Source of the DNA: Candidatus Scalindua sp.
Lineage (GTDB): Bacteria; Planctomycetota; Brocadiia; Brocadiales; Scalinduaceae
Direction: 5' to 3'
DNA: 32,000 bases
Assembly (NCBI GenBank): GCA_021777035.1
Contig: JAIQZR010000138.1
Coordinates: 1-32,000, forward strand
The notes below the pieces were generated by a model that worked only from the letters and a program-made list of their open reading frames with translations, did no database searches and was not told where the DNA came from. This document shows positions 443 through 15,862 of the stretch, piece after piece. The number at the start of each line of letters is the position of its first letter. Positions within the stretch are counted from its first letter, which is position 1. Made by a program: the position numbers and the translations under genes.

Positions 443-2767
443 ATGGAGAAAGAAATAGTAAAATACTCTTGGGTTGAAACTCATAAGGAATTAGTAAAGT
501 TCTTAGCTAATAATCAAAACAATCAAAAACAGCTAATTGACTTGCTTAAAAAAGTCGGAATAACTGGGTTTAAAGATAAAGATTCTAGTGGAGACAATAT
601 TGAACTTGAAGAAATAGACCCATTTACTTTTTTTTGTTATATATACAAACACGGTGACCAAAATAGACTTAATTATCTTCAAAAGATTGCAGAAGAAATC
701 AATATATTACCAATACCAACGGATGATTCTGGAATACCATCAGCTTACGCACAAAAAGTATGGCTATTTCCATATAAAGCGGAAAGAAACAATAATGAGA
801 TTTCTCGTTTATGGAATCTATTCTTTTGCGCTATAGAGAACCGTGTTTCAAATGAACAATTTGAGAATATATTAAAAATAAAAAATATTGGAAAAACGAA
901 ATTAACTGAAGCTCTTTTTAACATTAATCCCGAAAAATATTTTCCAATTGATAAGCCAACAAAACCTTATTTAAAAGAGAAATTAGAAATAGAACCAAAA
1001 TTTAATACATACACTGAATATCTTGATATTTTAAAGAGAATCAGAGGAAGAACGGATGAGCCTTTCTATAAACTTTCATATAAAGCTTCGGAATTGAATA
1101 GCGAAAAGAATAAAGTGAATTACTGGATTTTTCAAGGCAATCCTGACCTTTTTGATTTTGAAACTGCCTTAACCAATAATCTTATAAATGACTGGCATGT
1201 TTCTGCATATAAAGAAGAAATTAAAAAAGGTGACAAAGTAATTCTTTGGATTACGGGGAAAAAGTCAGGTTGCTATGCATTTGCAGAGGTTACACAAGAA
1301 CCAAGAATAAAAGAAACCTCTTCTGACGACCACCTTTGGGAAACTGATAAGAAAAACGAACTTAAAGCAGGAATAAAAGTTACAAACAATCTTGTTTCAA
1401 ACCCAATAACAAAAGAACAAATTGATGATATTGAAGAGTTGTCAGAATTGAAGGTTGGTAATCAAGGAACCAATTTTTCTGCAACGGAAGAAGAATATTT
1501 AACATTACTAAAAATGGCAGAAACAATGAATTCAAAAAAATATTGGCTTTTTGCACCAGGTAAAAACGCTGAAATGTGGGATGAGTTTTGCGAACAAGGT
1601 ATAATGGGCCTTGGTTGGGATACATTAGGAGACTTGAATAATTATAAGACAAAAGAAGAGATTGTTGTAAGGTTACAGGAACTTGAAAATACTAAGGGGT
1701 CTAAAAAAAATGATGCAACCGCAAATTATGAATTTAAGGAAGTCTTGTCAAAAGGTGATGTCGCTATTGTAAAGAAAGGCATAGGAGAATTGCTTGGGTA
1801 TGGTGTGGTAGCTTCAGACTATTTTTTTGATCATACCAGGAATAGTTACCAAAAATGCAGAAAAATTGACTGGAAAAAGAAAGGGAATTGGAAAACTGAT
1901 TTTTCACTTGTGCCAAAAACACTTACTGATATTACAAAATATCCAACAGAACACCCAGATTATGAATATTATTACGAAAGATTACTTGGATTGATGGATG
2001 ATAAAAAGGAGTATAGAATGAACTTTCCGCTTAATACAATTTTTTACGGTCCTCCTGGTACTGGTAAAACCCGTGGTACTATACTTAGAGCAGCACAAAT
2101 AATTGAAAATAGAATTATTACTGATTATGAAGAAGCTATGGAAGTTTTTAACAAATATCTGAGAAAAGAAATTGAGTTCATTACATTTCATCAAAACTAT
2201 AGTTATGAAGACTTTATTCAAGGTTTGAGGCCTGATGTAGATAATGGATCAGAGTTGCGTTTTGAAAGAAAAGATGGTGTTTTTAAACGAATTTCGGACA
2301 GGGCTCATAAGAACTTGTTAGATTCTCAAAATCCTAAAGATTCCAGAAGGAAATTCGAAGACGTTTTTAATGAATATATTAAGCCACTTAAAGAGAAAGA
2401 AGAACTTGAAGTTTGTATGAAAAATGTTTCTTTCTTCATTACAGGTATTACCCCTAAATCAATTGAGTTTCGGAAAAATAAAGGAGAATCACAACATTCA
2501 TTAAGCATCGAAACTCTTCGCAAAATGTATGAAAAAGGTAAAAACGATAATATAATAATAGGAGGGCTGCAACATTATTATGATCCTATTTTAACAAAGC
2601 TGCTAGAAAAAAGTAAAAGTGATGTTAATAAAATAGAACAGAAAAACTACGTCATAATTATTGATGAAATCAACAGGGCAAATATTTCTCGTGTTTTTGG
2701 TGAGTTAATAACGCTTATTGAACCTGACAAACGTTCACACGGCGCAATCCCTCGTTATGTCAATTGA
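443..2767 (+). CDS. McrB-family AAA+ GTPase with two N-terminal EVE/PUA-like modules; 3'-truncated, probable pseudogene
   Basis: 774-aa ORF. Walker A GPPGTGKT lies at about nt 2048-2071. Walker B plus the McrB signature VIIIDEINRANISRVFGELITLIEPDKR lies at about nt 2651-2734. Upstream, YWIFQGNPDLFDF...GDKVILW (about 1115-1440) and KYWLFAPGKNAEMWDEF...GDVAIVKKG (about 1538-1900) look like EVE/PUA-like reader modules. The ORF stops 10 codons after DKR, so the rest of the AAA+ domain is missing, and no McrC-like gene follows. Confidence 0.8.
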   Translation: MEKEIVKYSWVETHKELVKFLANNQNNQKQLIDLLKKVGITGFKDKDSSGDNIELEEIDPFTFFCYIYKHGDQNRLNYLQKIAEEINILPIPTDDSGIPSAYAQKVWLFPYKAERNNNEISRLWNLFFCAIENRVSNEQFENILKIKNIGKTKLTEALFNINPEKYFPIDKPTKPYLKEKLEIEPKFNTYTEYLDILKRIRGRTDEPFYKLSYKASELNSEKNKVNYWIFQGNPDLFDFETALTNNLINDWHVSAYKEEIKKGDKVILWITGKKSGCYAFAEVTQEPRIKETSSDDHLWETDKKNELKAGIKVTNNLVSNPITKEQIDDIEELSELKVGNQGTNFSATEEEYLTLLKMAETMNSKKYWLFAPGKNAEMWDEFCEQGIMGLGWDTLGDLNNYKTKEEIVVRLQELENTKGSKKNDATANYEFKEVLSKGDVAIVKKGIGELLGYGVVASDYFFDHTRNSYQKCRKIDWKKKGNWKTDFSLVPKTLTDITKYPTEHPDYEYYYERLLGLMDDKKEYRMNFPLNTIFYGPPGTGKTRGTILRAAQIIENRIITDYEEAMEVFNKYLRKEIEFITFHQNYSYEDFIQGLRPDVDNGSELRFERKDGVFKRISDRAHKNLLDSQNPKDSRRKFEDVFNEYIKPLKEKEELEVCMKNVSFFITGITPKSIEFRKNKGESQHSLSIETLRKMYEKGKNDNIIIGGLQHYYDPILTKLLEKSKSDVNKIEQKNYVIIIDEINRANISRVFGELITLIEPDKRSHGAIPRYVN

Positions 2768-2801
2768 AAAGTGTACCAGGTGGCAAAGCAAAAGTGTACC
2801 A
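2767..2801. repeat. 12-nt direct repeat AAAAGTGTACCA x2 at the McrB truncation point (possible transposon-end binding sites)
   Basis: Identical 12-mers at 2767-2778 and 2790-2801 with an 11-nt spacer. They begin exactly at the premature stop of the McrB-like ORF. Confidence 0.6.
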
Positions 2802-2839
2802 CACGATATAAAAGAATACATACGATATTAACAAGTCAT

Positions 2840-2900
2840 GGGAATCTGCGGTGCAACGGAAGAAGCCCGTAGGGCGACTGGAGTTGCACCGCAGATTCCC
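2840..2900. repeat. Perfect 18-bp inverted repeat (61-nt hairpin), unclassified
   Basis: GGGAATCTGCGGTGCAAC (2840-2857) is the exact reverse complement of GTTGCACCGCAGATTCCC (2883-2900). The 25-nt loop contains a nested GCCC-GTA-GGGC mini-hairpin (2865-2875). Confidence 0.7.
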
Positions 2901-3036
2901 CGCCCCTCGGATTATTCCCACAGGTATCAACGCAAGATGAATACCTGCTTGATATTGTATTATTAAGCCTTTTCCCTCTTTTTCATGCTTTGCTTAAATC
3001 GATAGCTTTTCGCCATTGAGTGTAAGAATATTATAA

Positions 3037-3349
3037 TGGACTGGGATTTTCGGACCACTAGCGAAGATGCATTTTTGATGTTAAGATATCAAAAAGGAGG
3101 TCTGGAAATGAGAAAAAGTTTTAGTGCGGAATTTATGGCGAAAGTGGCATTGGAAGCAATAAAAGAAGAAAAGGCAATAGCAGAGTTGTCGTCGAAATAC
3201 GAAGTTCACAGGACACAAATAGCAAATTGGCGTAAACGTGTATTAGTAGGTGTTAGAGAAATTTTCAAAGGGAAACTGGAAAAGGTAAACAAAAAAAATG
3301 AGAAGATGGTCGATGAACTGTATAGACAGATCGGGCACCTGAAAGCCCA
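3037..3349 (+). mobile_element. IS3-family insertion sequence fragment (left end plus 5' part of orfA only)
   Basis: A candidate left terminus TGGACTGGGATTTTCGGACCAC starts with TG at 3037. A Shine-Dalgarno AAAGGAGG lies at 3093-3100 and an ATG at 3108. The product MRKSFSAEFMAKVALEAIKEEKAIAELSSKYEVHRTQIANWRKR... is a typical IS3/IS911-type OrfA helix-turn-helix. Similarity ends near 3345-3350, inside the leucine-zipper region. No OrfB/DDE part and no right end are present. Confidence 0.75.
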
Positions 3350-3479
3350 CTTTCTCCGGGCCGTTATGCTTTCTACTTTGGTAAGTCCTTACGGGAATAT
3401 GATGTTGTGTTCACTGCTTCGCATGGGAGGCAAGCCTGGGCATATTACTTTGAAATATACGAAAATTCTGCTCCAATAA
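3108..3479 (+). pseudogene. IS3-family transposase OrfA, truncated and fused to unrelated sequence
   Basis: The first ~80 codons are OrfA-like, up to ...MVDELYRQIGHLKA. The remainder (HFLRAVMLSTLV...) has no OrfA character. Confidence 0.7.
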
Positions 3480-3751
3480 CGGATGCCATACAAACTGCAA
3501 CAAATATTCCCTCTTCAGTATTTGTCACCAAGACATCTAACATATATCACAATTCCAATTGTCCAGAACTAAGCACAGAAGATCTAGTTGAATTTGCTAC
3601 ATCACAAAAAGCGCAAGAGGCCGGTGGTGTACCGTGTAAGACTTGTAATCCGAAGTCTTCATCTGAAGAAAATACGACGGGAGATAAACCTGGCAAATCA
3701 CGCACTACATATGAATGGACAGGATGGAAGTCTTTGTTTGAAAATAAATAA
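3326..3751 (+). pseudogene. 5'-truncated gene ending in an Ada-like (H/C-x3-C...C-x2-C) zinc-ribbon domain
   Basis: The frame is open from 3326 with no credible start; the ORF track gives 3407-3751 from GTG. The C-terminal motif is NIYHNSNCPELSTEDLVEFATSQKAQEAGGVPCKTCNP. The upstream part abuts the IS3 fragment. Confidence 0.55.
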
Positions 3752-3899
3752 AAAATATCACTAATACATTTCGATGATTATGAGGTGTCGCAATGAAATT
3801 GAATAAGTTTATTTAAAATCGTTTACTATAGCCTTTTTATCCTCATTCATTTTATCTGGTGCAAGCGCAGTAGAAAACGCTATAGCTCCTAATGGAAAA

Positions 3900-5165
3900 T
3901 TGGGAGAATTAAGACACGGAACTTTTCCATCCCCCCCTCTTGGTAATTTTACTCATGTTGGTGTGGATATTGTTGCCCCATGTGGAAGCAATATTTACGC
4001 TTTTGCAGATGGCCAGGTTAAGGATATTATAGATAACACCAATGATGAAAATTTTAATACCTTGGGTTATATGGTACTAATAGAACATCCCGCATCACTT
4101 ATTGGTAAAACGTTTTATACACTTTTTCTGCACATGCAAAGCCCACCTGATGTAGCTAAATTAAAGACAAAGTATGGAGAAATTGAAGTAAATATTGACA
4201 CCATTACATCCTTTAACAAAGGTGTCTTAATTTTAAATGACCAAAGCAAGTTGTCAGGAAGTTTTACTGATGGAAATATAACGATCAAAACTTCATACGC
4301 AAAGTTTAGCCTTCCTATATCAGAAATCATTGCTATTTCTACTGAAGCAACTACTACTCCAAGCCAGGAAATAACTGCTCCTACTCAAGGTACAAAATCC
4401 ACAGTAAAGAGATTAAGCCGTGATAAAGCTAAAGAGGTTTTGAAAAACCTTGTGACTACAAAGCGTTGGTGTGCTTTCCCTGGAAAATGTCCAGATAAAA
4501 GTATTAGCATACCAAATGTTTACGGATTTTATTTAGAAGCTTCCAGTGCTGGGATAGAGGTTAGCAGAGAGACATTGATATCCTATTTGTCATGTTTAGA
4601 AAATAAAGGGCTTGTTAAAAACTTGAGTGTGAAAAAAGGAAGAAAAGAAGGTTTTTCTGGCTGGGATGCGTGGTTCGAGACTACAACAACTGGTGAGCCA
4701 TGGCAATTAACGGAGATGGGACAAAAGTATTTAACCGATAACCTGGACTATTCTTTACAGGTTGCTGTTGACAAGATTACAGGCATTCAGTTCAGTAATG
4801 AATACACTGTTACCAAAGTCTTTTTCGACGCTACGATAAAAAGTAGTAATAATCCATTTAACAAGTGTTTTGAAGATTATTTTGATGTTCATAGCTTATT
4901 AAACTACCCTTATGCACTGTTTGAGCTTTTTGATGATGGATGGCGTGTTAAAGAATGGCATAGTGGCGGTAAATTGAAAGAAAGAGTGCAACCGTCTACG
5001 AAGCAATTGGAGAAAACTACTGCTAGTGCCAACACTGACAAATCAGATTTAATTTTAGGCCGTCATGAACATGAAGCTGGAGTGATTGAGTACTTCGTAG
5101 ATGGTACTTTTATGTTACATATGCCTACGGGGGAGTATAAAAAAAGGCAGGCAATTGGAACATAA
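3900..5165 (+). CDS. Degenerate LytM/M23-like domain protein with a large uncharacterised C-terminal region (possibly part of a decayed longer gene, 3792-5522)
   Basis: The N-terminus FTHVGVDIVAPCGSNIYAFADGQV...GYMVLIEHPA...TLFLHMQ matches the M23 HxxxD segment and the following beta-strands. The terminal GPHLHFE-type HxH motif is absent. The start is TTG. A signal-peptide-like stretch lies upstream in frame but is interrupted by stops. Confidence 0.6.
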   Translation: MGELRHGTFPSPPLGNFTHVGVDIVAPCGSNIYAFADGQVKDIIDNTNDENFNTLGYMVLIEHPASLIGKTFYTLFLHMQSPPDVAKLKTKYGEIEVNIDTITSFNKGVLILNDQSKLSGSFTDGNITIKTSYAKFSLPISEIIAISTEATTTPSQEITAPTQGTKSTVKRLSRDKAKEVLKNLVTTKRWCAFPGKCPDKSISIPNVYGFYLEASSAGIEVSRETLISYLSCLENKGLVKNLSVKKGRKEGFSGWDAWFETTTTGEPWQLTEMGQKYLTDNLDYSLQVAVDKITGIQFSNEYTVTKVFFDATIKSSNNPFNKCFEDYFDVHSLLNYPYALFELFDDGWRVKEWHSGGKLKERVQPSTKQLEKTTASANTDKSDLILGRHEHEAGVIEYFVDGTFMLHMPTGEYKKRQAIGT

Positions 5166-5522
5166 ATGGAGATATCCTTACATTGCGTTTTTACATTCAT
5201 CCAAAACCATACAAATATTAAGATATTAGAACTCTCTGCAACCACGTATAAAATTGTGAGAATTAGTAGTGCCGAAAAGGATGCTTACAATAGTACAAAA
5301 AGTATAGAATCCACAGAACAATCTTCAGTATATACTACAGAAAATAGTGATAAGTCAGACAGTCCTAATAAAGCTTCATACTCCGTATTTGCCTCAAGTG
5401 ACTCTAATCTATATCACAAATCTAATTGTTCTAAACTGAACACTAAAGATTTAATAGAATTTAGCTCTCCTAAAAAAGCACGTAAATCTGGAGGTGCACC
5501 TTGTAGCAATTGTAATCCATAA
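5166..5522 (+). CDS. Small protein with C-terminal Ada-like zinc ribbon; same frame as the preceding ORF, separated by one TAA
   Basis: Contains NLYHKSNCSKLNTKDLIEFSSPKKARKSGGAPCSNCNP, paralogous to the motif at about 3545-3655. The ATG at 5166 directly follows the TAA at 5163-5165 in the same reading frame. Confidence 0.5.
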   Translation: MEISLHCVFTFIQNHTNIKILELSATTYKIVRISSAEKDAYNSTKSIESTEQSSVYTTENSDKSDSPNKASYSVFASSDSNLYHKSNCSKLNTKDLIEFSSPKKARKSGGAPCSNCNP

Positions 5523-5527
5523 AGAGA

Positions 5528-5947
5528 TTATTGTAAGGTGCTTTCTTTAAGGACTATATCTTGCTTGGGTGAGACCGCATGCAAAAGTTCATTAAATTTT
5601 TCAACGGAAGGAATAGATTTACCACGTTCGTATCTGGCAAAGGCATTTCGCGAAGAAGCGCCTATTCTTTCAGCTACCTGCGCTAAAGAGAGTCCGCTAA
5701 GTTCTCGTTTTCTTTGAAGAAGAATACTAACCAAGGTCCTTGTATCCTCAGAACCGATCTCGAAATATTCTTGTCGGTTTGAGTAAATTGACACATGAAA
5801 TCCTTCCTTATCAGCCATGGTCTCAATCAAATCCCCCACCATTTCAAAAGCCTCTTTCCTTGAATACCCTTGAGTCATTACATCAAGAATAGGTATTTCC
5901 GCCAACCAGAATTTGCCATTTTTGTAAATCTTTCCACTAAATCTCAT
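5528..5947 (-). CDS. hicB: HicB-family antitoxin with C-terminal XRE-type HTH
   Basis: The N-terminal HicB fold pattern is KNGKFWLAEIPILDVMTQGYSRKEAFEMVGDLIE. The C-terminal HTH is LSGLSLAQVAERIGASSRNAFARYERGKSIPS. It lies 3 nt downstream of hicA. Confidence 0.85.
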   Translation of the reverse strand: MRFSGKIYKNGKFWLAEIPILDVMTQGYSRKEAFEMVGDLIETMADKEGFHVSIYSNRQEYFEIGSEDTRTLVSILLQRKRELSGLSLAQVAERIGASSRNAFARYERGKSIPSVEKFNELLHAVSPKQDIVLKESTLQ

Positions 5948-5950
5948 ATA

Positions 5951-6142
5951 TTAACATCCTTTCTTTATTCTTCTAATAATGGCACGCGCAAGCATTTCAT
6001 TAATTTCAACGTGCCTTGGGACATATTCTTGATGCTCTCCATCAGTCCAGACATCATGTTTACGCCCATGCCTCAAAAACCACCATCCAAGCTTTCTAAG
6101 TGTATTTTCCAAAGCCTTACGTTTCATAGTTTTATTGTACAC
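5951..6142 (-). CDS. hicA: HicA-family mRNA interferase toxin
   Basis: MKRKALENTLRKLGWWFLRHGRKHDVWTDGEH...VPRH is typical of HicA/YcfA. The likely true start is the ATG at 6127 rather than 6142. Confidence 0.85.
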   Translation of the reverse strand: MYNKTMKRKALENTLRKLGWWFLRHGRKHDVWTDGEHQEYVPRHVEINEMLARAIIRRIKKGC

Positions 6143-6416
6143 ATATATGTATACGTGTCAAGCTGTTATAATTTTTGTGTAACGTCAAAAGGAGCTTGAA
6201 ATTATGGTTGACAACAACTAACACAACCATTAGAATTTCCTACTAAAATTATACTTGTATTGGCTGATAGTATGAGAAACTAAACACTTATGCAAAGTAA
6301 TTTCATAAACATTCCCGCCTTATTCACTTTTTCTGAATATACCATCATTTCAGCACTATTGAATACTTGATCTTTTTTGTTTTTCGCCATAAATTTCTTA
6401 GATTAAAAGATTGTAA

Positions 6417-6800
6417 ATGTATACAGGCATAGATATTATTGAGATCAGCAGGATAGAGAAGGTCTTTGGTTCACACAAAGACTTTCTTGGAAGGGTTTAT
6501 ACGTCTGATGAGGTGAAATATTGCCAAGCCAAAAAGAACTGTTATCAGCACTACGCAGTACGTTTTGCTTCAAAAGAGGCCGTACTCAAGGCGTTTGGAA
6601 CCGGTTTAAGAGACAGGATAAAGTGGACTGATATAGAAACGCTGAATGATGAACTTGGAAAGCCTTATGTAAATCTATACGGTAGAGCGAAAGAGATTGC
6701 AACAGAGAAAAATATCGGCGAAATTTCGGTTTCGTTATCACATTGTAAAGAATATGCAATTGCGCACGTATTATTAATACCTGAGAAATCTCATGAATAA
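6417..6800 (+). CDS. acpS: Holo-[acyl-carrier-protein] synthase (4'-phosphopantetheinyl transferase, AcpS type)
   Basis: 127 aa. Motifs: GIDIIEISRIEK..., FASKEAVLKAFGTG, GKPYV, SLSHCKEYAIAHVLL. Confidence 0.9.
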   Translation: MYTGIDIIEISRIEKVFGSHKDFLGRVYTSDEVKYCQAKKNCYQHYAVRFASKEAVLKAFGTGLRDRIKWTDIETLNDELGKPYVNLYGRAKEIATEKNIGEISVSLSHCKEYAIAHVLLIPEKSHE

Positions 6801-6809
6801 GAGAAAAAA

Positions 6810-8285
6810 ATGAAAAAACTAATTCTCATAAACCCTCACCCGATAGGTAATGTTGGCGAGGAAAATGTTTCAGTACTAAATCAGATGCCGGTAAATCTGG
6901 GATATTTGAAAGCGTTAACTCCTGGCAACTGGGAGGTGGACATAATAGATGAAACCCAGGAACTGTCGGTAGATGAAAAAGGTGAAAATGTCTGCTTTGA
7001 CAAGACGAATGTCGCCCTGGTTGGAATAACGTCCGTAAGTTATCAGGCAAACAGGGCATATCAGATTGCTACAGCATGCAAAAAAAGTGGAATACCAGTA
7101 ATAATGGGAGGAGTACACGCAACAAGCTATCCGGAAGAGGCAGCCAAATATGTTGACTCTGTGGTAATAAGAGAAGCGGTTCCTATATGGGAACAGATAA
7201 TTTCTGATTTCGAAAACAATGAGCTCAAGCCAACATATGACGGAGGCTTGACTCCTATGGAAACATACAAGAACCTTCTGCCAGATAGAAAGTTTTTGAC
7301 GGACAAGTATAAATACCGATACTCCGGCATAATTACAACTGCAGGCTGCCCGTTCAGTTGTGAGTTCTGCTCCGTTCCACAGTTCCAGGGAAGAAAATAC
7401 AGAGAGAGGCCTGTAGATGATGTTCTCAATGAGCTTGAGGCAATTAAAGGGCAGTATAGAGGCCTCATCCTGACAGATGAAAATTTCTACGGCCACAGCA
7501 AAAAGTCGTATGAAAGAGTCAGAACCCTTTTTAAAGGAATGGTCGATAGAGGTATTTACCAGAATTGGTTTGGGTTTACCTCATTAAACATCTATCAAGA
7601 TGATGAAACGTTGGACTATATGGCAAAGAGTGGATGTGTGGGTGTGCTCATTGGCATTGAATCTATAAATGAAGATGCATTAAAATCAATGAATAAAGGT
7701 GTTAATCTCCGTATAACAATAGATAAATACAAGGAAGCAATAAAGAATATACGGAAGCATGGCCTTGCTGTCTGGGGAACTATGGTATTCGGAAACGACA
7801 ATGATACACCAGATACATTTAAAGATGTAGTTGATTTTATATTGGATGCTAAGATAGACATAATGACCTGTGGTATATTGTGCCCATTTATCAATACACC
7901 ATTACAACAGAGGCTTGATAGAGACAACAGGCTGTTCAGAACTAACTTTCCTGAAGACTGGATTTATTACACATCACATCACTTAACGTATGTTTTGTCT
8001 AAGCTCTCACTTCAGGAATTTATTGATGGCATAGAGTATGTTTATAACAACATATATTCGACCGAAGTAATCAGGAAAAAGTTCAGAGAAGCAAAAGATG
8101 AACTCAACAATCTCAATGCCGCAATGTTTGCGTTCAGGGTCAATCTAGACTGGCAGGATGTATACAAACATCTGTTAGAAAACCTGAGAGAGCTGCAAGC
8201 TTCGGGAGATTATGAAAAGGCCCTGGAACGTTACGAAACACTGAAAAACCAGAAAAACCTGGACATGGCAAATACTAAGATTTAG
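6810..8285 (+). CDS. B12-binding-domain radical SAM enzyme (class B; BchE/HpnP-like)
   Basis: N-terminal cobalamin-binding-like segment VALVGITSVSYQANRAYQIATACKKSGIPVIMGGVHATSYPEE. CxxxCxxC cluster motif GCPFSCEFC, with Cys codons at 7347-7349, 7359-7361 and 7368-7370. The start is 9 nt after the acpS stop. Confidence 0.88.
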   Translation: MKKLILINPHPIGNVGEENVSVLNQMPVNLGYLKALTPGNWEVDIIDETQELSVDEKGENVCFDKTNVALVGITSVSYQANRAYQIATACKKSGIPVIMGGVHATSYPEEAAKYVDSVVIREAVPIWEQIISDFENNELKPTYDGGLTPMETYKNLLPDRKFLTDKYKYRYSGIITTAGCPFSCEFCSVPQFQGRKYRERPVDDVLNELEAIKGQYRGLILTDENFYGHSKKSYERVRTLFKGMVDRGIYQNWFGFTSLNIYQDDETLDYMAKSGCVGVLIGIESINEDALKSMNKGVNLRITIDKYKEAIKNIRKHGLAVWGTMVFGNDNDTPDTFKDVVDFILDAKIDIMTCGILCPFINTPLQQRLDRDNRLFRTNFPEDWIYYTSHHLTYVLSKLSLQEFIDGIEYVYNNIYSTEVIRKKFREAKDELNNLNAAMFAFRVNLDWQDVYKHLLENLRELQASGDYEKALERYETLKNQKNLDMANTKI

Positions 8286-8478: not shown

Positions 8479-9687
8479 ATGCCTAGAGTTGTTGTCACCG
8501 GTTTAGGATTAGTAATCGCTAATGGTATTGGTGTTACAAATGCGTGGAATGCCCTCATGAATGGCGAAGATGGCACTGCAGAGTTAAGATCCTTTGACAC
8601 ATCACAATATAAAGTACATCGTGCGTGCGAGGTAAAAGGTTTCGAAGTTGATACTGTCTTTGAAAACGAAACTACGGCAAACACAATACACAAATATACA
8701 TACACTGCTGCAAAAGAGGCGTTGGAAGATAGTGGTCTGAGTGATATTACAGAACGCAACAGAGAAAGATTTGGTATTGCAATCGGGACTCTTGCCGGAG
8801 AACTGCCTCCGTTTGAATACCTGTTACGCAACACACCTGAAGATAAAGCCAACGGCTTTGATATGGGTGTTGCTCTGACATATCCACCATCTTCTATTAC
8901 CACACTGCTCTCTGAAGATTTTGGATTTGAAGGGCCTAACATGGTATCACTAAATGCCTGCTCTTCAGGCAACCACGCTATCGCCTGGGCATTAGACCTT
9001 TTATACGAAGGAAAAGTTGATGTAATGCTGGTAGGCGGTGGTGAACTTATCCCACAAACAGAGTTTACGCATTTTCATAATCTGAAGGCGCTGGCACCTG
9101 AAAAGTGCCAGCCATTTGATAAAGAGAGAAAAGGTCTGATAATAGGAGAAGGTGCAGGAATAATGGTGTTAGAGACACTGGCTTCCGCTTCTAAAAGAGA
9201 TGCTAAAATTTATGCTGAATTAAAAGGCTATGGCATGAGCTGTGACGGACACCATATGACGGCCCCACATCCTGAAGGGGCAGGCGCAGTAGTGGCGATG
9301 TCAAATGCACTTTCCATGGCTAAAATGTCTTACAAAGACGTGGATTACATCAATGCGCATGGAACAGGGACTCCTTTAAATGACAGAATGGAGACCATGG
9401 CCATAAAGTCTGTGTTTAAAGAGCGTGCAAAGAGAATTCCAGTTAGCTCTATTAAATCTATGATAGGCCATACAATGGGTGCGGCCAGTGCAATAGAATC
9501 TGTGGTTAGTTGCCTGGCAATTAAAAACAACGAGGTTCCACCCACCATACACTATGAGGCACCTGATCCTGAGTGTGATCTGGATTATGTGCCAAATAAA
9601 GGACGCAAAACTGAAGTCAACTGTGTTATAAACAACTCATTTGCATTTGGCGGAAATAATGTCACGAATATTTTTAGTAGATTATAG
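8479..9687 (+). CDS. Beta-ketoacyl-ACP synthase II-like condensing enzyme (FabF family, catalytic triad intact)
   Basis: Active-site Cys in NACSSGNHA (TGC at 8959-8961). His in DGHHMTAP and NAHGTGTPLND. Also KSMIGHTMGAASAIE and NSFAFGGNN. The preferred start is MPRVVVTGLG at 8479, with AAAGGA upstream; the track ORF starts at 8455 with TTG. Confidence 0.9.
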   Translation: MPRVVVTGLGLVIANGIGVTNAWNALMNGEDGTAELRSFDTSQYKVHRACEVKGFEVDTVFENETTANTIHKYTYTAAKEALEDSGLSDITERNRERFGIAIGTLAGELPPFEYLLRNTPEDKANGFDMGVALTYPPSSITTLLSEDFGFEGPNMVSLNACSSGNHAIAWALDLLYEGKVDVMLVGGGELIPQTEFTHFHNLKALAPEKCQPFDKERKGLIIGEGAGIMVLETLASASKRDAKIYAELKGYGMSCDGHHMTAPHPEGAGAVVAMSNALSMAKMSYKDVDYINAHGTGTPLNDRMETMAIKSVFKERAKRIPVSSIKSMIGHTMGAASAIESVVSCLAIKNNEVPPTIHYEAPDPECDLDYVPNKGRKTEVNCVINNSFAFGGNNVTNIFSRL

Positions 9688-9735: not shown

Positions 9736-10128
9736 ATGCACTTTAAACCACTTTCTACAAGACAGGAAGGAATAGCAAAGAAAATTGTTGACGCAGCATA
9801 TTGTGTGCATAAGGAATTGGGTTCTGGTTTACTTGAAAAAGTGTATGAAGCTTGTTTTTGTCACGAGCTTAAAAAAAGGGATCTTTCCTATAGGAGACAG
9901 GTAGAAATTCCAATTGTGTATGACGGTATAACTTTAGAAGAGGGGCTAAGATTAGATGTATTGGTTGAGGATCTTATCATTTGTGAACTTAAGGCAGTTG
10001 ATAATATGAATCCTGTTTGGGAAGCACAGGTATTAAGCCATTTAAAGCTGGCAGACAAACGTTTAGGCTTCCTTATTAATTTTAATGAAAGATACGTAAA
10101 AGATGGTATCAGGCGTATAATTCTTTAA
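9736..10128 (+). CDS. GxxExxY family protein (PD-(D/E)XK-like), inserted between the two KS genes
   Basis: 130 aa. The defining motif is GSGLLEKVYE (G-x2-E-x2-Y). Further matches: PIVYDG, LDVLVEDLIICELKAV, GFLINFN. Confidence 0.85.
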   Translation: MHFKPLSTRQEGIAKKIVDAAYCVHKELGSGLLEKVYEACFCHELKKRDLSYRRQVEIPIVYDGITLEEGLRLDVLVEDLIICELKAVDNMNPVWEAQVLSHLKLADKRLGFLINFNERYVKDGIRRIIL

Positions 10129-10158: not shown

Positions 10159-11388
10159 ATGAATAAAAGGGCCGTAATTACTGGTATTGGAGTTGTGTCT
10201 CCGTTAGGTATCGGGCATCAGGATTTCTGGAATAACCTGGTTTCAGGCAGTTCCTCTATAGCGCCAATAGAGTGCCTTGATCTATCAAAGTATGAATGTA
10301 AAAACGGAGCAGAAGTTAAGGGGCTAAACCCGGAAGAGTTTTTAGGACGTAAAGGTTTAAGGTATCTTAACAAAGGGACTAAATTCCTGGGATCCAGCGC
10401 GAAACTGGCGGTAGATGACGCAAGACTCGAAATAGATGAAGAGCTGTCAAACCATACCGGGATCCTCATCGGCACTTCCCTTGGAAATTTCTCACAGACC
10501 ACAGATTATTTTCACGACATCATCATGGAAGGCCCATCAGAACTATCACCTATGCAGAGCTACGATGTCGCCCTGAACTCTTCCGTAAACTACGTCTCAG
10601 TATTTTTCAAGATGAAGAGTTTCGCCAGGACTATCTCCTCAGGCTTTACATCAGGTACCGATGCGATTGGAAATGCCGTTAAACTTGTACAGAATGGAAA
10701 AGCAAAAGTAATCATAGCCGGTGGAGTCGAGCAGATCTCATTGGATCTTTATATGATTTTTTATCTGAGAAAGATGCTGGCTGGAACTAATGATACCGGA
10801 AACGAGATCAGCATGCCCTTTGACAAAAGAAGAAATGGTTTTATTATGAGTGAAGGCAGTTATGTTTTCGTAGTGGAAGAGTATGACCACGCCTTAAATC
10901 GAGGAGCAAGAATATACGGTGAAATTTCCGGCTATGGCAGCCTCTTTTCTGGCAGCAGGAAAAGCGATACTGAAAACAGAATTAAAAAAGCCGGTAACAC
11001 AATGAAATTATGTATCGATGATGCGGGGATATCCCCAGACGACATAGATTTGATTAACGCAAACGGAAATTCCGGCAAGATGTCAGACCTCATAGAATCA
11101 AAGGCTATCAAAGGGTTGTTTGGAAAGAGAGGCGAAGAGATCCCTGTTCACGCCGTCAAATCAACCTTAGGAGAGAGTTACGGTGCATCCGGGGCAGCAC
11201 AGACAGTATCCGCTTTGCTTTCCATAAACAATGGATTGGTACCCCCTACCATTAATTACGAAGAAAAAGATCCTGAATGCAATCTGAATATTGTTGATGC
11301 AAAGCTCGAAAAGGATATCAATACAGTGCTCATTAATTCGTTTGATTTATCGGGAAACAACTCTTGCCTGGTTGTTAAGAAGGCATAG
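10159..11388 (+). CDS. Ketosynthase homologue lacking the Cys-His-His triad (chain-length-factor / KS-beta-like partner)
   Basis: The thiolase/KS fold is conserved throughout (VITGIGVVSPLG, IIAGGVE, PFDKRRNGFIMSEG, VPPTINYEEKDPEC, INSFDLSGNN). Hand alignment to E. coli FabF gives Cys->Phe (GFTSG; TTT at 10645-10647), His->Arg (GSRKSD) and His->Asn (INANGNSG). Confidence 0.85.
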   Translation: MNKRAVITGIGVVSPLGIGHQDFWNNLVSGSSSIAPIECLDLSKYECKNGAEVKGLNPEEFLGRKGLRYLNKGTKFLGSSAKLAVDDARLEIDEELSNHTGILIGTSLGNFSQTTDYFHDIIMEGPSELSPMQSYDVALNSSVNYVSVFFKMKSFARTISSGFTSGTDAIGNAVKLVQNGKAKVIIAGGVEQISLDLYMIFYLRKMLAGTNDTGNEISMPFDKRRNGFIMSEGSYVFVVEEYDHALNRGARIYGEISGYGSLFSGSRKSDTENRIKKAGNTMKLCIDDAGISPDDIDLINANGNSGKMSDLIESKAIKGLFGKRGEEIPVHAVKSTLGESYGASGAAQTVSALLSINNGLVPPTINYEEKDPECNLNIVDAKLEKDINTVLINSFDLSGNNSCLVVKKA

Positions 11389-11756
11389 AATCTACTAAAT
11401 CAGCTTTTAAACATAATATTGGAATAAATAATCCGGCACATTTCTCCCGACACCATTCTCGGGGTTTGAGATTATGAAGCGGTCAATACAATATTCAAAT
11501 TGCAGAAATATGGCCGTATTCTTATCAGGAGTACTATGTACATTCCAATTCCTACAATTTGTCAATCTTGCACTTGCTTTTGTAATCACTTTTGTTCATA
11601 ATGCTAGATGTAGGCTTAGGTAGGTTTGCGTTTTTAGCACTTGATAGATTGCCTAACTTGGACATGTAAGTAACTTTTCAGTATTTTGAAAAATCACTAA
11701 AAAAAGTGCAGAATGTCGAGTCTGAATAAGAAAAATGTAGGGGCTGTTTCCCAAAC

Positions 11757-11807
11757 AGTCTTTATTTGTACGGCTCGTTTTCTAAACGAGCCGTACAAAT
11801 AAAGACT
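11757..11807. repeat. Perfect 24-bp inverted repeat (hairpin with 3-nt loop) immediately upstream of the reductase gene
   Basis: AGTCTTTATTTGTACGGCTCGTTT (11757-11780) is the exact reverse complement of AAACGAGCCGTACAAATAAAGACT (11784-11807). A second small hairpin, CTGTTT-CCC-AAACAG (11744-11758), overlaps its 5' edge. Confidence 0.8.
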
Positions 11808-11822
11808 CTCTCTAAAAACAAT

Positions 11823-13850
11823 ATGAGTAAATTATTTACACCAATAAAAATTTGTAATTTAGAGATCAAGAACCGACTGGCCATGTCAGCAATGGATCTC
11901 GGCTTTACCTCAAATGGTTCTATAAACAATCGGTTTATAGATTTTTATGTAGAACGTGCTCGCGGAGGTGTAGGGTTAATTGTAGTGGGCGGATGCTATC
12001 CGGAAATGACCGGCAAGGTTTGGAAGAGCATAATTGGCCTGGACAAAGATGAATTTATTCCGGGTTTAAAGAAGCTAACCGATACGATACACAAATATGA
12101 TGTTAAGATTGCAGCACAAATACTTCACGGAGGGAGAAGCGCATCTTCATTTTTTTCAAAAACCCACCCAGTATCACCATCAAGCCTTTCACATATCAAC
12201 ATAAAGCAGAAACCACACGCCCTGACCATACCTGAAATAAAGAAAGTAATAGATGGCTATGTTACTGCCACAATAAGGGTAAAGAAGGGAGGGTTTGATG
12301 CAGTAGAGATACACGGCGGCATGGGCTATCTTATCAACCAGTTTCTTTCAAGAGCAACTAACAAGAGAAAAGATAGATATGGTGGCAGTCTCAAGAACAG
12401 GATAAGATTTGCGAAAGAGATAGTTGTAGCCATAAAGAAAAAAGTGGGGAAAAAATATCCTGTAATCTTCCGCTTATCGGGTGAAGATTTTGTAGATGAT
12501 GGGCTCAAAATAGATGAAAGTATTGAGATTGCGAAAGAACTGGAGAAAGCAGGTGTGGATGCATTCAATGTTTCACCCGGCTGGCATGAGAGCCGAACTC
12601 CCATAATGCTTATGGCTATTCCAAGAATGTCATATATCTTTCTGTCTGAAAAGATTAAAGACAATGTAAATGTACCTGTTATCGGATCCGTGAGAATAAA
12701 TGACTTGGCCCTGGCAGAGGAAGTTATTGATAATGACCGTTCAGACATTGTTTCAATAGGAAGGCCCTTAATAGCAGACCCGGAATTACCAAAAAAATAT
12801 AAGAAAAAGCAGTTTGATGATATCAGAAGATGCATTGCCTGTAACCAAGGTTGTTTTGATTCCTTGTTAGGTTTCAAATCTGTCAGCTGTTTATATAATG
12901 TCAGAGCTGGCAAAGAGAGTGAATTCAAGATCAGGAAGGCGAAGAAAAAGAAAAAAGTAATGGTTATTGGCGGCGGACCGGGAGGTATGGAGGCAGCAAG
13001 AATTGCCGCTTTAAGAGGTCATGACGTACATTTATTTGAGAAAGCAGATGTGCTTGGTGGTCAATTAAGATATGCTTATATACCGCCGGGAAGGGAAGAG
13101 ATAGAAAATGTTATCATATTTCTGGAAAATCAGATAAGGAAATTAAATGTAAATATACAGCTTTGCAAAAAAGTAGATACAAAAACGATAAAGGATTTAA
13201 AGCCGGACGTTGTAATCGCAGCGACAGGGGGGAAGCCTCTTATTCCTGAGATTTCTGGTGTTAAAGAGAAGAATGTTGTTGTAGCTGAAGACGTATTTGA
13301 CAATAAAGTAAAGGTTGGTCAAGACGTCGTAATTATAGGCGGAGGCACTATCGGTTGCGAAATCGCCCTTCACACGGCAAAGATGGGGGCAATGGAACCG
13401 GAAGTTGCCTGCTTTCTTTTAAAAAACAGAGTTATTAGTGGAGATGAAGCCATAGGACTTACTTCAAAGGGAAAACGAAATATCACTATTCTGGAAATGA
13501 AAAATAAAATTGGTGGAAAGTTTGGCATCTCAACCAGATGGGTTATCATGAAGCAGGTGCAGGATGCCGGCATTAACAGTATTACCGGAATAAAAGTAAA
13601 AAATATATCGACTAAAGCTAAATCAAAAAAAGAGAAGGATAAAGTCTGCGTAACTTTTGAAAAGGAAAATAAAAATACGAAGATTTATGCGGATACGGTT
13701 ATCATCGCCGCAGGATACAAATCCAACCAGGATCTTACCAGAAAATTAAACGGTACGATTAACGAACTATATAAAATAGGAGATTGCGTAGAGGTCAGGA
13801 CGGCACTCGAAGCGATCCATGAAGGGTTTGAAGTAGGATTGAAGATTTAA
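11823..13850 (+). CDS. FadH-like 2,4-dienoyl-CoA reductase / Old-Yellow-Enzyme-family flavoprotein with Fe-S and FAD/NAD(P) domains
   Basis: N-terminal OYE TIM-barrel (LKNRLAMSAMD, HGGMGYLINQFLS, RYGGSL). 4Fe-4S motif RRCIACNQGCFD. Two Rossmann motifs, VMVIGGGPGGMEAA and VVIIGGGTIGCEIA. The preferred start is MSKLFTPI at 11823; the track ORF begins at a TTG at 11766 inside the hairpin. Confidence 0.85.
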   Translation: MSKLFTPIKICNLEIKNRLAMSAMDLGFTSNGSINNRFIDFYVERARGGVGLIVVGGCYPEMTGKVWKSIIGLDKDEFIPGLKKLTDTIHKYDVKIAAQILHGGRSASSFFSKTHPVSPSSLSHINIKQKPHALTIPEIKKVIDGYVTATIRVKKGGFDAVEIHGGMGYLINQFLSRATNKRKDRYGGSLKNRIRFAKEIVVAIKKKVGKKYPVIFRLSGEDFVDDGLKIDESIEIAKELEKAGVDAFNVSPGWHESRTPIMLMAIPRMSYIFLSEKIKDNVNVPVIGSVRINDLALAEEVIDNDRSDIVSIGRPLIADPELPKKYKKKQFDDIRRCIACNQGCFDSLLGFKSVSCLYNVRAGKESEFKIRKAKKKKKVMVIGGGPGGMEAARIAALRGHDVHLFEKADVLGGQLRYAYIPPGREEIENVIIFLENQIRKLNVNIQLCKKVDTKTIKDLKPDVVIAATGGKPLIPEISGVKEKNVVVAEDVFDNKVKVGQDVVIIGGGTIGCEIALHTAKMGAMEPEVACFLLKNRVISGDEAIGLTSKGKRNITILEMKNKIGGKFGISTRWVIMKQVQDAGINSITGIKVKNISTKAKSKKEKDKVCVTFEKENKNTKIYADTVIIAAGYKSNQDLTRKLNGTINELYKIGDCVEVRTALEAIHEGFEVGLKI

Positions 13851-13854
13851 TATT

Positions 13855-14673
13855 ATGAAAGATATTCGAATGAATCGTGGCGACAACTCCGGTTATGACC
13901 ATCTGGAATTTGAAGAGATAGCGTCTGATAATGGTAAGAAAATAGGAATTATTTACTTGAACAAACCTGACAGGAACTCTTTGGGTTCCTGGTTACTGGA
14001 CGCTATATATGAGAAAATGGATCAGTACGAAAATGATGAAAAGGTTGGAGCCATTATTATTGCCAGTAAGTTAAGAGGGGTATTTTGTGACGGTGTAGAC
14101 CGCGAAGAGTTATTTGGGTCATGGATTTCAGATCTGGTAGCAAAGAAAGACTACGAACGGTTCCATCGTTCCTACGAGATGCTTGTTGAAATGGAAAATT
14201 GCCAGAAACCGGTTATTGCCGCAATTAATGGCATTGCAATAGGAGCAGGGATAGAACTTGCAATGTTATGTGATCTGCGTATTGCATCAGAACTCGCATT
14301 TTTCAATCTGCCTGAAGCAAAGCCGGAACTTGGCATTATTCCGGCGCTGGGCACAACACAACGTTTACCGCGGCTAATTGGCCATGCACGTGCAAAAGAG
14401 ATGCTGTTTCTTGGCAAGATGGTTCGTGCAAAAACCGCATTGGAATGGGGTTTAGTCAACCAAATTGTTCCACACAAAGAGGTCTTGAATCAAGCCATAG
14501 AAATGGCAAAAGTGCTGCTGGAGAGAGAGACTGGAGTACTAATAGAAATGAAAAAATGTGTCAATTTTGCAGTTGAAAATGATATTACAAAAGGTCTGGA
14601 ATACGAGGTCAGTGTATTCGCTAAAATGATGCGACTGAAACTGGCGGAAAAGGAGATTACCGTCGAATCGTAA
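13855..14673 (+). CDS. Enoyl-CoA hydratase/isomerase (crotonase) family protein
   Basis: Crotonase signature AAINGIAIGAGIELAMLCDLRIAS, plus PEAKPELGIIPALGTTQRLPRLIG. The start is 4 nt after the upstream stop. Confidence 0.88.
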   Translation: MKDIRMNRGDNSGYDHLEFEEIASDNGKKIGIIYLNKPDRNSLGSWLLDAIYEKMDQYENDEKVGAIIIASKLRGVFCDGVDREELFGSWISDLVAKKDYERFHRSYEMLVEMENCQKPVIAAINGIAIGAGIELAMLCDLRIASELAFFNLPEAKPELGIIPALGTTQRLPRLIGHARAKEMLFLGKMVRAKTALEWGLVNQIVPHKEVLNQAIEMAKVLLERETGVLIEMKKCVNFAVENDITKGLEYEVSVFAKMMRLKLAEKEITVES

Positions 14674-14750: not shown

Positions 14751-15494
14751 ATGAGTATGAGTAACAAGACGGCGATAGTAACAGGTGGTACAAGAGGTAT
14801 AGGAAAAGCGATAGTACTTGAACTGGCAAAAAACGGATGCAATGTTGCCTTTAACTATAGTAAGAGTGATGACCTGGCAAATGAACTCGTAAAGGAGATA
14901 GAAGCACTTGGAGTCAAGGCCATGGCAAAGAAGGCGGATGTATCCGATTTTGAAAGTGCTAAAGATATGATTAAAGAGGTTAAGGATGAGTTTGGTCAGA
15001 TCGATTATCTGGTTAACAATGCTGGAATAACGAGAGACAAACTGCTTGCCCTGATGAAAGAAAATGACTGGGATGACGTGATTAATATAAACCTGAAAAG
15101 TGTGTATAATTTTTCTAAGGCGGTAATCATGACCATGATCAAGCAGAAAAGAGGAAACATACTCAACATAACCTCTGTCAGCGGAATTGCGGGCGTTGCA
15201 GGCCAGACCAACTACTCAGCTTCCAAAGCGGGAATGATTGGCTTCACAAAGGCCCTTGCAAAGGAAGTTGGTAAGGCAAAAATTAATGTTAACGCCATTG
15301 CGTGCGGATTTATAGAAACAGACATGACTTCAGAGCTTCCTGAAGAGTACAAGCAGAAGATGATAGATATGACTGCACTAAAGCGATTCGGCACAACTGA
15401 CGACGTAGCAAAAACAGCCAGATTTTTACTATCAGACGACGCAAAATATATTACCGGACAGGTATTGTCTATCGATGGAGGATTGGCGTTATAA
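14751..15494 (+). CDS. fabG: 3-oxoacyl-ACP reductase (SDR family, FabG-like)
   Basis: VTGGTRGIGKA (TGxxxGxG), NNAGITRD, catalytic YSASKAG (YxxxK), GQVLSIDGG. GGAGG Shine-Dalgarno upstream. Confidence 0.9.
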   Translation: MSMSNKTAIVTGGTRGIGKAIVLELAKNGCNVAFNYSKSDDLANELVKEIEALGVKAMAKKADVSDFESAKDMIKEVKDEFGQIDYLVNNAGITRDKLLALMKENDWDDVININLKSVYNFSKAVIMTMIKQKRGNILNITSVSGIAGVAGQTNYSASKAGMIGFTKALAKEVGKAKINVNAIACGFIETDMTSELPEEYKQKMIDMTALKRFGTTDDVAKTARFLLSDDAKYITGQVLSIDGGLAL

Positions 15495-15550: not shown

Positions 15551-15862
15551 ATGCTCTTCTTATTAAAAGTTCAAATAAAAAAGATACCTGATATGCCTGT
15601 GAAGGATTTCCTGGGATTTGTAGTCAAGGAGTGGGAATATTTTATCAGGATGAGAAAAAGAGGCAGGATCCTTGCAGGCGGGAAACTGGCCGGTAGCAGA
15701 GGTGCTGCCGCCATTATTGAAGTTGATTCCAATGAAGACCTTGATCAACTCGTATCAAATCTACCACTCTTTCCATTTTTCACTGACATAGAAATAACCC
15801 CACTCGTCCCTACAGACAAAGCGTTGCTCGATGTTAAACGCATCCATTCACTTATGAAGTAA
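15551..15862 (+). CDS. Muconolactone delta-isomerase-like small protein
   Basis: 103 aa. The N-terminus MLFLLKV..., the central GGKLAGSRGAAAIIEVDSNEDLDQLVSNLPLFPF and the length fit the MIase (ferredoxin-like) family. AAAGGAG Shine-Dalgarno upstream. This is a recalled pattern match and is less certain than its neighbours. Confidence 0.6.
   Translation: MLFLLKVQIKKIPDMPVKDFLGFVVKEWEYFIRMRKRGRILAGGKLAGSRGAAAIIEVDSNEDLDQLVSNLPLFPFFTDIEITPLVPTDKALLDVKRIHSLMK

Follow-up and report, generated by a model that had tools for sequence, protein, structure and literature searches.

KS2, a FabF-like protein of Candidatus Scalindua without a catalytic triad, as the ortholog of Kuste2805 and probable non-catalytic partner of its neighbouring ketosynthase

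Contig JAIQZR010000138.1 of Candidatus Scalindua sp. (assembly GCA_021777035.1), of which we analysed positions 1 to 32,000 (hereafter the window), encodes two FabF-like ketosynthase (KS) homologues, KS1 and KS2, within one operon. KS2 has lost the Cys-His-His triad, and the explanation that we favour, at a probability of roughly three in four, is that it serves as a non-catalytic heterodimer partner of KS1 and shapes the substrate pocket of the latter. It is the Scalindua ortholog of Kuste2805 of Kuenenia stuttgartiensis and a homologue of amxFabFmut, the dead subunit of a heterodimer from anaerobic ammonium-oxidizing (anammox) bacteria. A sequence-only reading of the window had already proposed that KS2 is a dead partner of the neighbouring KS resembling a chain-length factor (CLF); through its homology to amxFabFmut, and hence by analogy with a proven heterodimer, this interpretation is well supported; within it, the pairing with KS1 and a role in chain length or pocket shape are inferred. 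The KSs and the sites within KS2 are as follows, in window coordinates:

8479 to 9687, + strand: KS1, an active FabF-like KS with Pfam KS N- and C-terminal domains, counterpart of kuste2804
10159 to 11388, + strand: KS2, the triad-less FabF-like protein, ortholog of Kuste2805 and proposed non-catalytic partner of KS1
10534 to 10590, + strand: tip of the KS2 helix-loop-helix, residues 126-144, the counterpart of which lines the partner's acyl tunnel in amxFabFmut
10645 to 10647, + strand: codon (TTT) of Phe163 in SSGFTSG, at the site of the nucleophilic Cys163; invariant in 57 anammox orthologs
10957 to 10959, + strand: codon of Arg267 in GSRKSD, aligned with His268 of 'YHMT' in E. coli FabF
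11062 to 11064, + strand: codon of Asn302, at the site of catalytic His303 (NAHGT changed to NANGN)
11173 to 11175, + strand: codon of Glu339, at the site of catalytic His340 (KSMTGH changed to KSTLGE(S))

The open reading frame (ORF) of KS2 starts with ATG, encodes 409 residues and is full-length, spanning both KS Pfam domains end to end (PF00109, 3-251 of 252; PF02801, 1-119 of 119) and aligning over its whole length with more than 60 solved KS chains by HMMER; the fold is thus retained, as the sequence-only reading had held. Active-site residues were aligned in three ways that were concordant, using HMMER against solved FabF structures (B. subtilis FabF 4LS5) and MAFFT with E. coli FabF, KS1 and homologues. 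For the ruler, E. coli FabF, the motif positions C163, H303 and H340 match those in the independent PDB alignments.

The triad Cys163-His303-His340 is absent from KS2, which has Phe163, Asn302 and Glu339 instead, and checking the alignment against solved structures revealed no Cys or His of the triad. The earlier conclusion that all three catalytic residues had been lost was therefore right, but its list of replacements was not. The change of Cys to Phe at the nucleophile (Cys163 aligning with Phe163 in SSGFTSG) and that of His to Asn in NAHGT (His303 aligning with Asn302) were both confirmed. The third replacement had been given as His to Arg at 'YHMT', and Arg267 does align there; however, His268 of E. 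coli FabF lies outside the triad, and the actual third member, His340 of KSMTGH, had been overlooked. The correct list is Cys to Phe, His to Asn and His to Glu. Further active-site substitutions were found at Thr270 (Ser), Thr305 (Asn), Thr307 (Gly), Glu349 (Gln) and the gate Phe400 (Leu), and Lys335 in FabF numbering is kept as Lys334. Against the NCBIfam fabF equivalog TIGR03150, KS2 scores 339.5 bits, below the cutoff of 493.75. Because the Cys nucleophile and both His residues are missing, KS2 is, judging by its residues, unable to catalyse condensation.

The positions altered in KS2 all keep their standard residues in KS1, the active site of which is intact (Cys/His/His/Lys/Glu/Phe), with the signature CHTTKHEF in every ortholog. 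Its start is likely ATG 8479 rather than TTG 8455 of the mechanically called ORF, because the leader contains a stop codon in one locus (L010) and MPRVVVTG is conserved in all orthologs.

The proteins most similar to KS2, at 75-100% identity, come exclusively from Candidatus Scalindua (88% in S. japonica, 80% in S. arabica, 78% in S. rubra and 75% in S. sediminis), which makes the window that of a marine anammox bacterium; 16 Scalindua genome loci were retrieved with KS2. Apart from these 16, the matches in a genome-collection scan with KS2 were nearly all canonical FabFs (signature CHTKHEF). A narrow-alignment metagenome scan, which had generic N-terminal patterns, gave 54 loci with canonical FabFs only, along with a Brocadia-type locus (L082). 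In Kuenenia stuttgartiensis, a described cluster consists of Kuste2802 (acpS), Kuste2803 (a B12 radical S-adenosylmethionine (SAM) enzyme), Kuste2804 (FabF) and Kuste2805 (PMC2649909, PMC4790861), the last of which, accession CAJ73556, was labelled a 'non-canonical FabB' by Javidpour et al. 2016 (PMC4790861). The gene order of Kuste2802-2805 recurs in the window: AcpS, B12 radical-SAM enzyme, FabF and dead KS. Table 2 of Rattray et al. 2009 lists for Kuste2805 the residues Phe163, Asn298, Asn300, Cys302, Lys328, Glu333, Gln342 and Phe392 (PMC2649909). At these eight positions KS2 has F, N, N, G, K, E, Q and L, sharing the pattern at six of them (Phe163/Asn298/Asn300/Lys328/Glu333/Gln342), and orthologs from Brocadia and Jettenia, 56-60% identical to KS2, have F, N, N, C, K, E, Q and Y, of which FNNCKEQ equals the first seven of the eight residues tabulated for Kuste2805. 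The differences are confined to position 302, which is Cys in Kuste2805, Brocadia and Jettenia and Gly in KS2, and to the gate position 392, which is Leu in KS2, Phe as published for Kuste2805 and Tyr in the aligned freshwater genera.

On the strength of the published residue table, the synteny and the Brocadia and Jettenia sequences, we conclude that KS2 is the Scalindua ortholog of Kuste2805. The sequence-only reading had suggested an undescribed lineage of KS partners, which cannot stand: because KS2 is orthologous to a protein tabulated by Rattray et al. 2009, the lineage was already described, and its residue pattern has been in print since that year (PMC2649909). Our results thus overturn nothing; what is new is a Scalindua member of a known group. 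We found no paper characterising the 2804/2805 pair biochemically, and a 2026 preprint on the other anammox pair, considered below, omits it.

KS2 is under purifying selection and is not a pseudogene. The median ratio of nonsynonymous to synonymous substitution rates (dN/dS) among 11 Scalindua orthologs is 0.092 for KS2, compared with 0.053 for KS1, 0.036 for the radical-SAM gene and 0.061 for the old yellow enzyme (OYE)-like gene that follows KS2. The F/N/N/K/E/Q residues of KS2 are invariant across Scalindua; among the 57 anammox orthologs, F163, K334, G338, E339 and Q348 never vary, and conservation of N302 and N304 is 90% or higher. A decaying, functionless duplicate of KS1 or of FabF would be in keeping with the loss of every catalytic residue and with the lower conservation of KS2 relative to its neighbours (72-89% identity between Scalindua loci, compared with 84-94% for KS1). 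It would also be in keeping with one Scalindua metagenome-assembled genome (MAG; L016, 5646-8696), in which KS2 lies in three frame-shifted pieces. However, the frame is intact in all other loci, and the substituted residues and interface segments are invariant across genera that are ~40% divergent in sequence. Because the adjacent OYE gene of L016 is broken in the same manner, likewise into three frame-shifted pieces, the frameshifts there are probably an assembly error rather than pseudogenisation. In addition, the Kuste2805 protein has been detected upon heterologous expression (Javidpour et al. 2016, PMC4790861). The dN/dS and conservation data effectively refute a pseudogene in progress, and we consider its likelihood negligible.

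The analogy with a proven heterodimer comes from the best structural match. KS2 matches chain C of PDB entry 9S5H best (E = 2.8e-90, 306 bits; B. subtilis FabF is second at 276 bits), and KS1 matches chain B of the same entry best (405 bits, compared with 302 bits for B. subtilis FabF). By residue match to the description of Granatino et al., we assign chains C and B to amxFabFmut and amxFabF2 of Brocadia fulgida, respectively. These proteins co-purify, are active only together and crystallise as a heterodimer (bioRxiv 10.64898/2026.05.19.726425). According to the same preprint, amxFabFmut alone shows no decarboxylation, condensation or probe cross-linking, its Phe135 and Val139 line the tunnel, mutating these residues shifts the chain-length preference, and the heterodimer (amxFabFhet) prefers C6-C8; its authors claim it as the first CLF in a fatty-acid pathway (bioRxiv 10.64898/2026.05.19.726425). 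At 38% identity, amxFabFmut (Kuste3606 / Broful02170; chain C of 9S5H and 9S5I) is a paralog of KS2 and not its ortholog.

The relationship extends to both members of the pair. We built a neighbour-joining tree of 96 sequences, among them 50%-identity representatives from an exhaustive HMMER search, the 9S5H chains, E. coli FabF and the separate halves of fusion proteins. In this tree, a clade composed only of inactive sequences holds both KS2 and amxFabFmut (100/100 bootstraps; 97/100 with the ten signature columns masked), and a small clade composed only of active ones holds KS1 and amxFabF2 (100/100 bootstraps). The two anammox pairs look as if they arose when an already existing KS/dead-KS pair was duplicated. 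Of the 61 inactive representatives, 59 have Lys335, 50 have Glu340, 44 have Asn305 and 39 have Gln349; the residue at the nucleophile position varies and is most often Phe (17 of 61).

Gene arrangement points in the same direction. The stop codon of KS1 directly abuts the ATG of KS2 (TAGATG or TAAATG) in 6 of 11 Scalindua loci, and at nearly every dead-KS locus with enough flanking sequence an active KS is adjacent or within ~2 kb, the sole exception being a locus with only 276 bp upstream (L077). Moreover, ~30 representative proteins of ~800 residues consist of an N-terminal active KS fused to a C-terminal inactive KS, matching the gene order of KS1 and KS2. These fusions (P0123-P0252, ~750-930 residues) have C/H/K/H/E/F in the active half, and some of their C-terminal halves (P0135, P0142, P0182 and P0202) carry the N/K/E/Q signature. 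One fusion, P0273, is named Candidatus Helarchaeota, and one fusion cluster is annotated from an Asgard archaeon MAG.

Conservation in KS2 peaks in the segment that would line the tunnel of its partner. When the Scalindua consensus is compared with that of the freshwater genera, identity is 95% over residues 126-145 and 63% over the whole protein, and ELSPMxSYDVALNSS is invariant in Scalindua, Brocadia and Jettenia. Within this segment, Ser134 and Ala138 of KS2 align with Phe135 and Val139 of amxFabFmut. Because these residues replace bulkier ones, the KS1/KS2 tunnel is predicted to exceed that of amxFabFhet in width or length. AlphaFold2 monomer models of KS2 had a predicted local distance difference test (pLDDT) score of 57 with 18 Scalindua sequences and of 67 with 57 anammox sequences (predicted template modelling score, pTM, 0.76). 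The thiolase core was confident, and segments 32-74, 108-137 and 193-231, which include interface elements, had low confidence, perhaps because they depend on a partner or merely because the alignment was shallow. The best fold match of the model was B. subtilis FabF, at a template modelling (TM) score of 0.72-0.74.

The remaining genes of the operon are as follows:

6417 to 6800, + strand: holo-acyl carrier protein (ACP) synthase AcpS (PF01648, E = 4.5e-18; TIGR00516 above cutoff), counterpart of kuste2802
6810 to 8285, + strand: B12-binding radical SAM enzyme (PF04055 and PF02310), counterpart of kuste2803
9736 to 10128, + strand: GxxExxY / PD-(D/E)XK_3 gene (PF13366, E = 2.8e-39; TIGR04256)
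11823 to 13850, + strand: OYE / 2,4-dienoyl-coenzyme A (CoA)-reductase-like flavoprotein (PF00724, E = 3e-73; PF07992), a candidate enoyl/dienoyl reductase
13855 to 14673, + strand: crotonase-family enoyl-CoA hydratase (PF00378, E = 5.4e-51), a candidate dehydratase
14751 to 15494, + strand: FabG-type 3-oxoacyl-ACP reductase (TIGR01830, 324 bits against a cutoff of 297.75), conserved in Scalindua loci
15551 to 15862, + strand: muconolactone-isomerase-like small protein (PF02426, E = 1e-13), the final conserved operon gene, found in Scalindua and L078

With the exception of the GxxExxY gene, this order is kept in every Scalindua locus with sufficient flanking sequence. AcpS precedes the radical-SAM gene in Candidatus Brocadia pituitae and in the Scalindua loci that retain the upstream flank, and the core of AcpS, radical-SAM gene, KS and dead KS is present in the complete genome of the former (AP021856). 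A deeper-branching relative has the arrangement radical-SAM gene, KS, dead KS and OYE. The radical-SAM gene is 85-96% identical across Scalindua. The OYE gene directly follows KS2 in all Scalindua loci and in L074, and the crotonase gene is conserved downstream in Scalindua, L075, L078, L082 and a Brocadia locus (L159). Kuste2803 is a literature candidate for the cyclobutane-forming enzyme, and Kuste2802 is the sole acpS of Kuenenia in Table 1 of Rattray et al. (PMC2649909).

The GxxExxY gene sits exactly between the stop codon of KS1 and the start codon of KS2, and is carried only by the window, L012 and L080. Two further loci (L002 and L003) have insertions of 167-204 nucleotides (nt) at the same junction which share the 3'-end motif of the element, CTTAGTGGCAG, just upstream of KS2. 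The gene has the look of a small inserted mobile element that leaves decayed remnants, and it lies outside the KS system.

KS1 and KS2 would be made together from their tightly coupled gene pair and would form a heterodimer parallel to amxFabF2/amxFabFmut, in which the only active site would be on KS1 and KS2 would be the second half of an obligatory dimer. The helix-loop-helix of KS2 (residues ~105-148) would wall the acyl tunnel of KS1 and thereby gauge the chain lengths or shapes accepted. Phe163 would plug the vestigial active-site cavity of KS2, and Lys334-Glu339-Gln348 would replace the Lys-His-Glu network in a purely structural capacity. Together with FabG, the crotonase and the OYE-type reductase, KS1/KS2 could provide a full cycle of ketoreduction, dehydration and enoyl reduction, and a modification would come from the B12 radical-SAM enzyme. 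An amxACP encoded elsewhere, the housekeeping ACP or CoA could serve as carrier, and the product may be an anammox-specific lipid, possibly a ladderane.

Several observations weigh against this account. Neither the gap between KS2 and the OYE gene nor a whole-window scan for the DSL phosphopantetheine motif yielded an ACP gene or such a motif, and CoA esters are the usual substrates of crotonase-family and OYE-family enzymes. In this genome the GxxExxY gene parts KS1 from KS2, so that direct translational coupling is broken. For amxFabFhet, an electrostatically asymmetric helix-loop-helix interface has been described, negative on the KS and positive on the dead subunit; crude net charges of the helix-loop-helix and interacting-helix segments showed no clear asymmetry between partners, not even in the 9S5H reference pair, so that this comparison tells little at the level of sequence. 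We found no experiment in the literature that ties any of these clusters to ladderanes, and KS-deadKS-radical-SAM modules also occur in non-anammox bacteria (a Blastocatellia MAG), so that the module itself is no proof of ladderane synthesis. Finally, amxFabFmut of S. brodae crystallised as a homodimer, which indicates that dead subunits can self-associate in vitro (bioRxiv 10.64898/2026.05.19.726425).

This last point would also suit a KS2 that functions independently of KS1, either as a homodimeric acyl-ACP or acyl-CoA scaffold feeding the radical-SAM enzyme, or as a new enzyme acting through Asn304/Lys334/Glu339/Gln348, for example in decarboxylation or in the coupling step put forward by Rattray et al. 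for non-canonical FabFs. The residues concerned are not the result of random decay: K335 and E340 occur together in 50 of the 61 inactive representatives, with N305 in 42 and Q349 in 36 of those 50, and the nucleophile loop, FARTISSGFTSGTDAIGNA, is strongly conserved. The module is also repeatedly found beside B12 radical-SAM genes. However, the paralog amxFabFmut is inert alone and contributes to activity only in its heterodimer, the tight coupling of KS to dead KS and the natural fusions favour a two-subunit unit, and the vestigial site has no evident nucleophile or general base. We thus consider an independent function unlikely and retain the heterodimer of KS1 and KS2 as the better explanation.

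Other features of the window are noted here for completeness. The operon opens with a holo-ACP synthase gene although the window yielded no ACP gene. KS2 and the OYE gene are separated by a non-coding stretch of 435 nt (window 11389-11822), which is missing from most Scalindua loci; in these, the OYE start codon adjoins or overlaps the KS2 stop codon. The stretch contains a perfect 24-bp inverted repeat (11757-11780 and 11784-11807) with a 3-nt loop, shortly before the OYE ATG (11823). Searched against Rfam, the 435-nt insert matched nothing above threshold and produced only hairpin noise (a microRNA model). Upstream of the operon, positions 443-6200 have the appearance of a mobile or defence patch, containing an EVE and AAA_5 (McrB-like) ORF that stops abruptly at 2767, a helix-turn-helix (HTH) fragment of an IS3-type transposase (3036-3479), an M23-peptidase-like ORF, and a HicA-like / HTH pair on the minus strand (5528-6142).

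The KS-deadKS-radical-SAM module is not confined to ladderane producers. In a Blastocatellia acidobacterial MAG (GCA_035652355.1; L076, 5799-12133), an active KS overlaps a dead KS (P0141; F/S/N/K/E/Q), which is followed by two B12 radical-SAM genes. A metagenome contig (Logan SRR13254584; L075, 1-10051) carries both anammox-type clusters, in the order partial dead KS, phytoene-desaturase-like amine oxidase, three B12 radical-SAM genes, active KS, dead KS (P0122; F/A/H/K/E/Q) and crotonase. Other metagenome contigs (L083-L088 and L096) have dead KSs of the Phe/Met type in reversed order, the dead KS preceding the active one; their signatures include FNNTKEQP, FCNTKESP and MNNTKEAS, and FabG lies between the KS genes in four loci. 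Both anammox pairs sit within a much larger, mostly unannotated clade of dead-KS partners with an Asn/Lys/Glu/Gln signature.

Ladderane lipid biosynthesis is still unsolved, and amxFabF2/amxFabFmut is the sole biochemically characterised condensing enzyme of the candidate clusters. A further KS/dead-KS pair, paralogous to the first, is conserved among the anammox genera sampled (Scalindua, Brocadia and Jettenia, together with Kuenenia according to the literature) and is under strong purifying selection. The smaller residues within the predicted tunnel-lining segment of KS2, its most conserved part, suggest a testable division of labour between the two pairs. A tentative extension, on which we place considerably less confidence than on the partnership itself and which may well prove wrong, is that anammox bacteria have two differently gauged heterodimers: 3605/3606, with Phe135/Val139, for C6-C8, and 2804/2805, with Ser134/Ala138, a Phe163 plug and a wider tunnel, for longer or bulkier, possibly cyclobutane-bearing, chains. 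The latter pair would then work in a self-contained cycle of KS, FabG, crotonase and OYE coupled to the B12 radical-SAM enzyme, and both would belong to an old, multi-phylum family of x-N-K-E-Q CLFs of fatty-acid synthesis (FAS). If this is true, the x-N-K-E-Q clade, which is often linked to B12 radical-SAM genes, could represent a general module for unusual lipids, with examples in Blastocatellia, a Thermodesulfovibrionales MAG and the ~800-residue KS-deadKS fusions, including the one named Helarchaeota.

Among known systems, KS2 resembles FabFs in both sequence and fold more than it does any CLF chain. The housekeeping FabF (β-ketoacyl-ACP synthase II, KAS II; B. subtilis 4LS5) is like KS2 in fold and length, and differs in that its three catalytic residues and gate Phe are replaced in KS2; it is also the closest structural homolog of amxFabFmut (bioRxiv 10.64898/2026.05.19.726425). 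The CLFs of type II polyketide synthases (PKSs), such as ActI-ORF2 (1TQY chain B), are like KS2 in being a dead KS fold encoded beside an active KS, and as the dead subunit of a KS heterodimer they limit the acyl pocket (PMC8358021). Such a juxtaposition might suggest that KS2 is itself a classical CLF (KS-beta) of an aromatic or polyene polyketide synthase, and both KSs of the window do weakly match type II PKS-like NCBIfam models (AmcF of cispentacin, 140 bits for KS2 against a cutoff of 325). However, the nucleophile position of KS2 is Phe, whereas Bisang et al. in 1999 reportedly found Gln at that position in classical CLFs. CLF chains are missing both from the 60 highest-ranking PDB sequence matches of KS2 and from its 50 highest-ranking fold matches, in which FabFs and KS-alpha chains do appear, the KS partners of CLFs being among the 60 sequence matches. 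Cyclases and aromatases are found near type II PKS CLFs, whereas the window contains no cyclase, aromatase or ACP gene and the neighbours of KS2 are FAS-like reductive enzymes in an operon specific to anammox genomes. The distinction from Gln-bearing CLFs drawn by the sequence-only reading thus holds, and we regard a classical CLF as very improbable.

In highly reducing type II PKSs, Iga12 (ishigamide) and ApeC (aryl polyenes) are likewise dead partners without Gln, which work alongside ketoreductase and dehydratase enzymes on reduced chains (PMC8358021). ApeC-type CLFs, however, are half-size, ApeC being a single thiolase half (PMC8358021), whereas KS2 is full length and has both halves; membership among classical CLFs and ApeC proteins was rejected on the basis of defining residues and protein size. 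Iga12 is not among the best matches of KS2, although its KS partner Iga11 (6KXD chain A) is present. The remaining comparison is with amxFabFmut. The paralog is encoded in Cluster I with amxACP, amxFabZ, a phytoene-desaturase-like enzyme and a radical-SAM enzyme, whereas KS2 neighbours AcpS, a radical-SAM enzyme, OYE, crotonase and FabG; of the Cluster I genes, amxACP, FabZ and the phytoene-desaturase-like enzyme are all missing from the operon of the window. The nucleophile position is Val in amxFabFmut (Thr in S. brodae) and Phe in KS2. The two proteins nevertheless share the replacement of His303 by Asn, of His340 by Glu and of Glu349 by Gln, together with the retention of Lys335.

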